NCBI GenBank assembly: GCA_964016885.1
Contig: OZ024740.1
Location: 403,682,001-403,746,000, forward strand
Length of the DNA stretch: 64,000 nt
Source of the DNA: Eledone cirrhosa
Lineage: Eukaryota
Direction of reading: 5' to 3'
Under the pieces are notes generated by a model. The model was not told where the DNA came from, searched no databases, and saw only the letters and a list, made by a program, of their open reading frames with translations. The translations under genes were made by a program, and so were the position numbers. Positions 6,298 through 57,649 of this stretch are shown here, piece after piece. Numbering within the stretch: position 1 is the stretch's first letter; every line of letters starts with the position of its first letter.

Positions 6298-6348
6298 AGT
6301 TTAATCAAAGAATAGTTGCTTTCACCTTTAACGGGATCTTCTGAGACT
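6298..6348 (-). ncRNA. Family B hammerhead (CAGAAGA core) in the pLTR about 150 nt upstream of the RT start codon
   Basis: AGTCT-CAGAAGA-TCCCGTTAAAGGT-GAAA-GCAAC...-AAACT; degenerate copy of the motif at 51501. Confidence 0.55.
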
Positions 6349-6598
6349 AAAAAAAATGTATCTGTGAACGCAGAAGTAAATATTTCGAAAAACCACTGCT
6401 TTCACCATTGACGGGGGAAAGCAGTGATTCTTTGCTTAAACTTTGATCTATTCTTATAATAAATAATACACACACACACACACACACACACACACACACA
6501 CACACACACACACACACACACACATATATATATATATGTATATATATATATATATATATATATATATATATATATATATATATATATATATATATATA

Positions 6599-6780
6599 AC
6601 GAAGGAAATGTGGTAAGGAACCAGGTGGACCATAACGCACCAAAGTACTCAATACTTGAGGTAGTAGAGTGGGTAATAGGAACCAGTAAGACCCCGACAG
6701 CCGAGCTCAAGCCGTTTCGACGGCTAATTAGCCGTCGAAACGGCTTGAGCTCGGCTGTCGGGGTCTTACTGGTTCCTATA
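6599..6780. repeat. Family A pLTR end with a ~104-bp perfect palindrome
   Basis: 6676-6779 is self-complementary around CGGCTAA|TTAGCCG and lies between (TA)n tracts. Confidence 0.85.
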
Positions 6781-6805
6781 TATATATATATATATATATA
6801 TATAT

Positions 6806-7020
6806 ATATTTATTAAAATAACATATTAAAGTTTAAGCAAAGAATCGCTGCTTTCACCCTTAACGGGATCTTCTGAAGATCCCGTTAAGGGTGAAAGCAG
6901 CGATTCTTTGCTTAAACTTTAATCTGTTATTTTAATAAATATTTACTCTACGATTCTTATATATTTATCCTTATCGTGCCCTCTTTGGATTTTAGTCTTC
7001 AAATTTATTATTATTACTAT
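6806..7020. repeat. Family B pLTR fold-back with hammerhead cores in both arms
   Basis: 6806-6942 near-perfect palindrome centred on GATCTTC-T-GAAGATC; 6943-7020 is the reverse complement of about 6180-6250. Confidence 0.85.
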
Positions 7021-7123
7021 ATATATATACATATATATATATATATATATATATATATATATATATATATATATATATATATATATATATATATATATAT
7101 ATATGTATATATATATATATATA

Positions 7124-54480: not shown

Positions 54481-55354
54481 ATATAGGAACGATCGACTTT
54501 CGTCAAATCGGACCGAAGAAACATTGTTTCCGTTGGTCTTTCCAATTGCTAATACTATCTATCGGTCGCTACTCCAGGTAGAAGGAGCAACATGAAATAA
54601 AGTGTCTTGCTCAAGGACATAACGCATCGCCTGGTCTATTTCGTACGTATGTATGTATACGTGCTTTTTTGTGTGTATTACTTACCACGCGTGTCTGTCC
54701 TGTTAGCTGGGTCATGTATCGCTGTCAAAAATTTTTTAAATAAAATATATAGATATATAATATATATATATATATATATATTTTTTTTTTTTCTTATATT
54801 TATTTGCGTGTGTGAATATGTAGAGGAGTGCATTCATGTATGTGTATGTATGTACGTTTTGTACGTTTGTGTGAATGTATGTATGTGTATATATATGTGT
54901 GTGTGTATGGCTATGTTTGTGTATGTGTATGCTTGTACACACACATGTGTATGTGTGTGTATGTGTATGTGTGTATATGTATATATATGTATATATATAT
55001 ATATATATGTACATATATATATATGTGTGTGGATATGTGCGTGTGTGTGTGTGTGTGTGTGTGCGCGTGTGTGTATATGTATTAATGTATGTATGTGTAT
55101 ATGTGTGTATATATGTGTTTGTGTAGGTAAGTGTACGTTTTATATATATGTGTATATGTATATATGTATGCGTACACACACATATATATATGTATATATA
55201 TATGTGTGTAAGTATGCTTTGGGTTTTTTTTGTGTGTGTGTTTGCATGCGTAGTTTTATTTTACTTTTCCTTTCCTTCTCCCTTCTCCAGCCTCACTTTC
55301 ATATAGATTGCATTTTTGGTTTTGTAATCCAAATTCAATAAACAAACCAGCTTT

Positions 55355-55413
55355 TTCCGTTCTGATGATTGAAAGCAAAACCTTTTGCTTTAAGAAACCA
55401 CTGGTAAATGGAA
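55355..55413 (+). ncRNA. Canonical type I hammerhead ribozyme
   Basis: TTCCGTT-CTGATGA-TTGAAAGCAAAA CC TTTTGCTTTAA-GAAA-CC ACT GG-TA-AATGGAA. Confidence 0.87.
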
Positions 55414-56510
55414 TAATTGCCTTGTGTTGTTTATTACATAATAATAATAATATATATATATATATATATATATATTTTTTTTTTTTTAGAGTTAAATAAG
55501 GTTCATATGAATTATCTAAGAATGAGTTTTACACACATATATATGTGTGTGTTTGTATTTGTATGTACGTGTTTGTGATATGTATGTATATGTATGTGTA
55601 TATTTGTATGGTTATGTATGTATGTGTATATATATATATATATATATATATATATATATATATATATATGTATGTGTGTGTATATATGTATATGTGTGTG
55701 TGTGTGTGTATGTATTTGTGTATGGGTATGTGTATGTATTTATGTATTTGTATATGTATATTTATGTATGAGAGTGTGTGTATGTATTTATTTTTACGTA
55801 TGTATGTGTACGTGCATTTGTGTGTATTGCTTACCACGTGTGTCTGTTAATTTATTTGTTGCCTGTATCGCTGTCAACATTATAATAGTCTTTATATTCA
55901 TTTTTATGTTTTTTATTATTATATATTTTTTCTTATATTTATTTGTGTGTGTGAGTATGTAGAGGTGTGTGTATATATTTCTATGTTTGTGCATGCGTAT
56001 GTATGCGTGTATATATGTGTGTATGTATGTGTATGTATGTACGTGTGTATATACGTATGATTGTGTGTATGTATGTATGTATGTATGTATGTATGTATGT
56101 ATGTATGTGTATGTATATGTATATGTGTATGTATATGTATGTGTATGTGTATATATATATATATATATATATATATGTGTGTGTGTGTGTGTGTGTGGTT
56201 GTATTTATGTATGTGTATGTATGGATATGTTGATATTTATGTGTGTATGTATGTATGTGTATATGTATGTGTATGTATATATATACACATATATATGTGT
56301 GTGTGCGTGTGTATATATGTGTGTGTATGTATGTGTGTGTATATATATATATATACATATATATGTGTATGTATATAATTGTGTGTGTGTGTGTATTTGC
56401 ATGTGTGTTTTTATTTTATTTTTCCTTTCCTTCTTCCTTTTCCAGCCTCAATTTCATATAGATTGCATTTTTGTTTTTAAAATCCAACGTCAATAAATAC
56501 ACCAGGATTT

Positions 56511-56570
56511 TTTCATTCTGATGATTGAAAGCAACATTTTTTGCTTTTAAGAAACCACTGGTAAATGAAA
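56511..56570 (+). ncRNA. Canonical type I hammerhead ribozyme
   Basis: TTTCATT-CTGATGA-TTGAAAGCAA...TTGCTTTTAA-GAAA-CC ACT GG-TA-AATGAAA. Confidence 0.87.
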
Positions 56571-56621
56571 TAATTGCCTTATGTTGTTTATTACATAACT
56601 ATATATATATATATATATATA

Positions 56622-57649
56622 TTAAAATAACAGATTAAACTTTAAGCAAAGAATCGCTGCTTTCACCCTTAACGGGATCTTCTGAAACTAACAAAGTCAA
56701 TCTGTAAACGCAGAAGTGGATATTTCAAAAAACGTTGCAACCGGAGGAAGACAGGAAGACGATACTTTGGTTCGTGGAAACGTTCCCTTCACAAAACATA
56801 CAGGTAATATATACTTACCTATGCAAATAAGTAATGGTATAAACATAACATATACTTAGCTACCACATCAAGACGTAAAATATCCACGTATAGATCGTAC
56901 TATCCGTTAGGGTATAATGTGGGGCTGTAATACAGGAAAGTGTTGTGCAATTTATGTTTACAAGCCGAAATTGCCTCAAATTTTTTGTTTAAGATGTGGT
57001 TTGTGGCGTAGAGTATTTCCAGGGCCTCAGCGCAGAGGTCACATGGTCTAGTATTTCCGTTATACGATCTAGCCCTAGCTAGGATCTCCCAATAGATTCA
57101 AGCAGCGTCTTTACATGCATACCCATTCTTTTCGTTACCCTCTAAGAAGGAATATGACGTCACTTTCAGCTTATATCCGGAGTCTAAAAGACAACCACGC
57201 CCAATATAAGTTACACTGGGAGATCCTAGCGAGGGCTAGATCGTATAACGGAAATAAAAGACCTTGTGACCTCTGCGCCGCTGATGCCCTGGAAATACTC
57301 TATGCCACAGACCACATCTTAAAAAAAAATCTGAGGCAATTTCGGCTTGTAAACATAAATTGCACAAAACTTTCCTGTATTACAGCCCCACATTATACCC
57401 TAACAGATAGTACGATCTATACGGGGATATTTTACGTCTTGATGTGGTAGCTAAGTATATGTTATGTTTATACCATTCCTTATTTGCATAGGTAAGTATA
57501 TATTACCTGTATGTTTTGTGAAGGAACGTTTCCTAGAACCAAAGTATCGTCTTCCTGTCTTTCTCCGGTTGCAACGTTTTTTGAAATATCCACTTCTGCG
57601 TTTACAGATTGACTTTGTTAGTTTCAGAAGATCCCGTTAAGGGTGAAAG
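56622..57649. mobile_element. Penelope family B 3' end as a ~1-kb fold-back (GIY-YIG C-terminal remnants, pLTR hammerheads in both arms)
   Basis: 56659-57092 is inverted at 57215-57649; WEILARARSYNG..RPCDLC remnant; CAGAAGA hammerheads at 56640-56689 (-) and 57620-57649 (+, cut by the gap). Confidence 0.8.

Follow-up and report, generated by a model that had tools for sequence, protein, structure and literature searches.

U4A as a family-wide, long-lived hammerhead core variant in a Hydra-clade Penelope-like element of Eledone cirrhosa: a comparative sequence analysis

Hammerhead ribozymes are described by a position numbering and by the NUH rule for the cleavage site, and within their CUGANGA box U4 is normally conserved and is thought to be necessary for the CUGA U-turn. 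The numbering and the NUH usage adopted here agree with those in the available text of Naghdi et al. 2020 (PMC7151607). Among the hammerheads of Penelope-like elements (PLEs), the min-HHRs described by Cervera and De la Pena (2014, PMC4209133) occur in pairs, one in each of two direct pLTRs some 3 kb from each other, in elements with thousands of solo and inverted copies, an intron adjoining the motif and a low expected activity. U4 is present in 56/56 rows of Fig. S3 of that paper, for which the descriptor demanded U4, and the core variant recorded there is U3-A8. For the Hydra clade of PLEs, the sections consulted of Craig et al. (2021, PMC8557442) give as diagnostics DKT, RWK, a CxCX5C linker, CxxC and CxH motifs, (TA)n targets and a length under about 3 kb; the hammerheads are of type I, lie near the 3' end and carry U-U on a short stem II, and in File S2 the U-U closing pair is found in 14/26 rows, U17 in 10/26 and U4 in 26/26. 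Whether PLEs need hammerhead cleavage at all is left as an open question in those sections of PMC8557442 and in PMC4209133.

Natural core variants with lowered activity have been described, such as U4C in a viroid, A6C in a phage and U10.1-U11.1, in the available text of Perreault et al. 2011 (PMC3088659) and PMC7151607, and these are single loci; the U4C variant has much lower activity and still supports the viroid in vivo (PMC3088659). A pairwise mutation scan, in the portion of the paper seen, reports low activity for all single CUGA mutants and no rescue inside CUGA apart from a C3-G8 swap (PMC9901934). U4A is not named in the text, figures aside, of PMC3088659 and PMC7151607, and the part of the literature on U4A/CAGA-type cores that was consulted describes no hammerhead with U4A from nature, which falls short of establishing its absence from print.

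The stretch of DNA analysed here, referred to as the window, comprises 64,000 nt of Eledone cirrhosa (GCA_964016885.1, contig OZ024740.1, 403,682,001 to 403,746,000, forward strand), in which a 27-nt hammerhead motif matched six times, against no match in 100 shuffles. An initial annotation had listed five places, at 6298, 6830, 51501, 56640 and 57620, that share the core CAGAAGA-TCCCGTTAA(G/A)GGT-GAAAG, and had noted a plus-strand CTGAAGA at the apex of the 6874 hairpin. The core is present at all five places and re-reading of the sequence recovers the apex, the positions in that annotation being motif edges and not cores (Table 1). The pairing of the stems that it saw in the best copies holds for the 51.5-kb copy, the sole copy in the window with three intact stems and one whose predicted cut, from the NUH rule, falls between 51506 and 51505; elsewhere there are mismatches or losses. 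Thus the 56.6-kb copy has a single stem I mismatch, the 6.87-kb fold-back lacks the 5' strand of stem I from both arms, and the GCA and 3' half of the 57.6-kb copy are unreadable at an assembly gap of 200 bases (N, 57650-57849) that interrupts this last motif copy. Because a single inverted insertion accounts for both the 56.6- and the 57.6-kb copy, as its two arms (435 bp, 95%), the five listed copies amount to at most four insertion events. The argument that the same change in independent insertions implies a parent with A4 therefore overstated their independence, and was right about the parent, since A4 is found in 98.9% of exact matches and in three subfamilies.

Table 1. Positions of family B features and of other elements in the window
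Feature	Position	Strand
Motif core	6337-6343	-
Motif core	6869-6875	-
Motif core	6873-6879	+
Motif core	51540-51546	-
Motif core	56678-56684	-
Motif core	57625-57631	+
Old decayed family B Penelope-like body (RT + linker region), 84% identity to L048, with the 6.3-kb pLTR at its head	4445..6393	-
pLTR copy with hammerhead, core CAGAAGA 6337-6343; single mismatch in stem I, in stem II and in stem III	6277..6393	-
Stub, 3' half of motif only (GAAA, stem III, stem I 3' strand)	6413..6465	+
Fold-back insertion, apex 6874 on core position 4, CAGAAGA on minus and CTGAAGA on plus; one perfect hairpin	6806..7016	.
Fragment of family B tail, sequence downstream of motif	50683..50733	+
5'-truncated copy within (TA)n, all stems intact, core 51540-51546	51477..51604	-
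Inverted insertion, left arm, core 56678-56684, 3' UTR intron exactly excised near 56787	56615..57091	-
Inverted insertion, right arm: endonuclease ORF end, spliced 3' UTR, core 57625-57631, ends at assembly gap	57089..57649	+
U3-A8 Hydra-like family	15850-18122, 40497-42625, 1826-1954, 6676-6779, 63855-63911	
At least 5 further hammerhead families, canonical CUGANGA, several fold-back pairs	14999, 15083, 33026, 33179, ~42930, 45645, 51164, 55362, 56518	
Helitron-like ORFs (Helitron_like_N, PIF1 helicase)	34079-38415	
LINE-type RT + endonuclease ORFs	7388-14528, 22031-25298	

The family B motif has a type I layout, with three stems arranged about the core, the structure open at stem I and an NUH site present. 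Stem I consists of AGUUU/AAACU (5 bp), an internal loop and a distal helix of 7 bp; stem II is CCC/GGG (3 bp), closed by U10.1-U11.1; and stem III is 5 bp long with a 7-nt loop and is followed by U17. The core letters C3, G5, A6, G8, A9, G12, A13 and A14 match the hammerhead, and U4 alone fails. Neither the window nor the motif matched a hammerhead family in Rfam. As in the Hydra-clade hammerheads of PMC8557442, the motif lies near the 3' end, with U-U on a short stem II and U17, and the possibility that these last two features represent additional damage was rejected, as both are ordinary among the Hydra-clade rows of that source and both occur with a canonical core in other hammerhead families of the same genome. 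On comparison with the published rows, U4A is the only departure from the clade norm. Stem III begins A-G-C-A and carries a non-palindromic loop, in contrast to the short A-C loop type in the portion of PMC8557442 consulted, and since it is a full stem, a dimer would in principle be unnecessary, unlike the situation described for the min-HHRs in the available part of PMC4209133. In its direct motifs, solo and inverted copies, adjoining intron and low expected activity, family B otherwise resembles those elements, and it differs from the single-locus variants reported in the available text of PMC3088659 and PMC7151607 in that U4A is carried by some 20,000 copies in three subfamilies.

That the host is a Penelope-like element, as the initial annotation had proposed, is borne out by a tandem copy (L048), in which two direct motifs 3,259 bp apart flank an ORF with RT plus endonuclease: a 641-aa frame contains DKT and YRDD, and the endonuclease end lies in a second frame. 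The L048 protein reads SDKTG (DKT, not DKG) and RWR (one conservative change from the RWK motif), its linker CNCRNRVDC is of the CxCX5C type, and CxxC and CxH motifs surround a conserved E and N in family B (CDLC..E..N..CKH). Signs of a GIY-YIG endonuclease are IxY..YIG in another copy (L051) and a Pfam GIY-YIG match in a homologue (P0095); a Pfam search of the family B ORFs themselves gave no match. Homologues at E 1e-20 numbered 567 of 7,995 scored candidates, with a best identity of 57%, and the CxCX5C linker was present in 109/120 of the homologues listed. Family B also displays traits of EN+ Penelope-like elements (5' truncation, partial tandems, an inverted 5' copy and a short tail), its 3' ends enter (TA)n about 23 nt past the predicted cut, and the unit measures 3.26 kb including an intron, or about 2.5 kb when spliced. 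By its protein motifs the host is assigned to the Hydra clade, sharing with the elements described in the consulted sections of PMC8557442 the (TA)n targets and DKT, CxCX5C, CxxC and CxH; the Neptune clade was ruled out, as CxCX5C and DKT are present instead of a CX2-5CxxC linker and DKG.

The intron, of 718-750 nt, is of the GT-AG type and lies in the 3' UTR, past the ORF and ahead of the motif; donors and acceptors number two each (L048:4834-5583). The exact spliced junction is found at 369 genomic places, including both arms in the window (56787 and 57527), which means that these copies passed through RNA. Spliced RNAs of family B were retrotransposed beside unspliced ones. Contigs from four sequencing runs contain GT..AG skips in DNA and are not informative on expression; their frequent variants fall mainly in loops, at CpG sites and in stem II. 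Low-depth traces in two runs were not counted as evidence of other hosts.

An exact 29-nt motif allowing any base at position 4 gave 20,122 matches in the 3.0-Gb genome of the species, with A4 in 19,908 of them and another base in 214. Across the genome, for which the initial annotation had suggested building a family consensus, A4 thus predominates, CTGAAGA is not the family state, and the stems are conserved across subfamilies. Of the non-A letters, the first 100 among the matches listed comprised 39 T, 35 G and 26 C, and a rough classifier put 17 of the 39 T4 places down as intact point mutants and the other 22 as products of junctions or of truncation (two of the 22 seemingly intact near the core). 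Decay of copies after insertion was similar at all sites, at about 1% per A; among young copies, the substitutions per site amounted to 188 copies for the four core As, 214 for A4 and 280 for three free As, to which sequence context may contribute. Of 311 matches to a possible sister lineage combining U4 with this stem III, the 35 that were read revealed no such lineage, being junctions, scattered family B point mutants and unrelated sequence. A metagenome pattern scan for related loci gave 107 matches, none of which was confirmed.

A relaxed search for CTGAAGA returned 2,132 matches versus 676 for the reversed control, and 14 of the first 20 loci belonged to family B. Each of these 14 was a fold-back apex with its centre at position 4. 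This position is the middle of a small quasi-palindrome, TTC-A-GAA, so that after a strand switch there one strand reads CTG and the other CAG; the apex copies have lost the 5' strand of stem I on both arms and fold as a single hairpin at about -46 kcal/mol. The canonical core read at 6874, CTGAAGA, is such a fold-back junction by-product, and the idea that it represents a surviving ancestor was ruled out by the uniform nature of these apexes. U4A itself may have originated at this fold-back hotspot, where strand switching would swap T and A. The motif core and proximal stem I hold clusters of 5' truncations and of fold-back points (L048:2412-2448; loci L089-L118 and L199-L288), and summed contig depth is roughly halved across 35 nt at L048:2412-2448; together, the depth drop and the clustered truncations suggest stalling or self-priming at the structure.

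The age of the variant can be judged from two further subfamilies. B2, defined by loop 2 GTAATA and relatives, has A4 in 36/36 copies, and B3, with loop 2 GCTTA, has it in 31/31, N7 being U in 26 of these. As a control for bias, copies were also chosen by their 3' tail alone, blind to the core. For B2, 92 places of 268 were fetched and 3 duplicates removed, leaving 89, of which 47 extend to the core and 24 keep stem I, all with A4 (24/24); for B3, 73 places of 123 were taken with duplicates retained, 48 extend to the core, and of the 35 that keep stem I, A4 is present in 34 and U7 in 27. Divergence from the subfamily's own majority over the stem and core letters is 2.8% (23/820) in the young subfamily B1, 9.9% in B2 and 10.7% in B3, and the greater divergence implies that B2 and B3 are older than B1. 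Majority states were then compared with B1, excluding positions forced by the search pattern and counting N7 separately: B2 has changed at 0/50 stem and core sites versus 25/168 loop and flank sites (p=0.0016) and B3 at 0/50 versus 24/150 (p=0.0008), two comparisons that share many differences and are not independent. The core alone, at 0/10 changed, gives p=0.36. G5, G8, G12, A13, A14 and the U-U pair are unchanged across all three subfamilies, the sole core switch being at the free N7, where B3 reads CAGAUGA; loop 2 has varied repeatedly (GCTTA, ACTTA, GTAATA, GTATA, GTAAAA, GTTAA). Neither compensatory pair changes nor covariation were seen across the three subfamilies. By these alignments the U4A change is genuine, runs through the whole family and has persisted for long, while the ribozyme and the element clade that hosts it are both of known kinds.

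Does such a core still cut? The reading preferred here, to which we would give about even chances, is that family B carries a Hydra-clade type I hammerhead, with A4 fixed in three subfamilies, that probably still cuts itself, slowly. Conservation of the fold would then reflect selection on the source elements. In favour of activity are the constancy of the stems and remaining core letters while N7 and the loops changed, the lower count at core As than at free As in young copies, sequence context permitting, and the viroid precedent of U4C. Loss of U4 would weaken the U-turn and add a competing UUUCA/UGAAA pairing, lowering the rate, and slow cutting after U17 would suffice for the processing of tandem transcripts while leaving many RNAs uncut; each integrated 3' end holds the whole motif, so the element would indeed need many uncut RNAs. 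Computed folding places the hammerhead fold of the A4 form 2.1 kcal/mol above the minimum, with a proximal stem I probability of 0.07, as compared with 1.8 kcal/mol and 0.12 for natural U4 copies, and the competing pairing rises from 0.02 (U4) to 0.35 (A4) when natural copies that agree at every other one of 80 nt are compared; such folding energies do not distinguish active forms from inactive ones.

The main rival, a serious one that we hold to be somewhat less probable, is that the ribozyme is catalytically dead, that the fold is kept for another task at the 3' end, and that the element spreads without self-cleavage. Candidate tasks would be recognition by the RT/endonuclease, 3'-end formation, or a promoter or translation role of the upstream pLTR. 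The significant conservation does come from the stems and not from the core by itself, genomic 5' ends form no peak at the predicted cut (174 versus 130 for a boundary 4 nt upstream that served as control), the single CUGA mutants in the portion seen of PMC9901934 have low activity, and A4 raises the competing pairing. Craig et al. moreover note, in the sections of PMC8557442 consulted, that Naiads, which have no canonical hammerheads, spread nonetheless, and that hammerheads may be parasites of PLEs. Against a dead ribozyme stand the one core switch, which fell on the free N7 (about 1 in 11 by chance), and the constancy of the remaining core letters and the U-U pair in three subfamilies.

It is unlikely that the core is instead an efficient one, A4 being compensated by a contact between loops 1 and 2 that the long stem I provides, or by A4-U7 in the oldest subfamily, so that cleavage would be near normal; an efficient natural hammerhead devoid of U4, its compensating contact having evolved via CAGAUGA to CAGAAGA, is in our view similarly improbable. 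The conserved monomer-type stem III and extended stem I would suit such a core, CAGAUGA in B3 mirrors CUGAAGA at positions 4 and 7, and no revertant lineage arose despite existing U4 copies. However, the young and most numerous subfamily combines A4 with A7, loop 2 changed repeatedly, and the pairwise scan, in the part available, found no CUGA rescue beyond the swap already mentioned (PMC9901934). Less probable still is that an unselected relic acquired a neutral founder mutation and that a few master elements passed it on, which would accord with the even decay after insertion but is already disfavoured by the lack of any change at 50 structured sites when 15-16% of neighbouring sites changed. 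That A4 is maintained since TTTCAG serves as the 3' splice site of the element's intron can scarcely be credited, for although the upstream intron with its alternative sites and its spliced copies is genuine, 0 genomic copies have either donor joined to the core CAG (RNAs so spliced might not integrate).

Family B constitutes a natural test set, in which a core change expected to be harmful was fixed through at least three amplification waves and in which the same genome offers natural U4, G4 and C4 copies together with two N7 states. Cleavage by the A4 form would mean that the core tolerates more than descriptors allow for, and a dead A4 form that a 20,000-copy family keeps the fold and not the chemistry. 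Either outcome would be useful to specialists, but the recurrence of altered cores in such elements limits the surprise. Were an efficient U4-less core to exist, the standard CUGANGA descriptors would miss whole ribozyme families.

Several other elements were noted in the window (Table 1) and at other loci. A related Hydra-like family, the closest to family B seen in the window at 56% amino-acid identity, has U4 with a U3-A8 core, TTGATAA, with CTGAGAA in one copy; in its hammerhead the loop of stem II is long, stem III measures 6 bp and the site is GUC. A GIY-YIG ORF (53218-53940) lies upstream of the 55362 motif. Tandem arrays of units of about 500 bp, each with a canonical hammerhead, resemble arrays of non-LTR retrozymes (loci L043:7873-9837 and L044:6667-7205). 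A 3-kb direct repeat of 91% identity joins 7559-10562 and 11796-14801.
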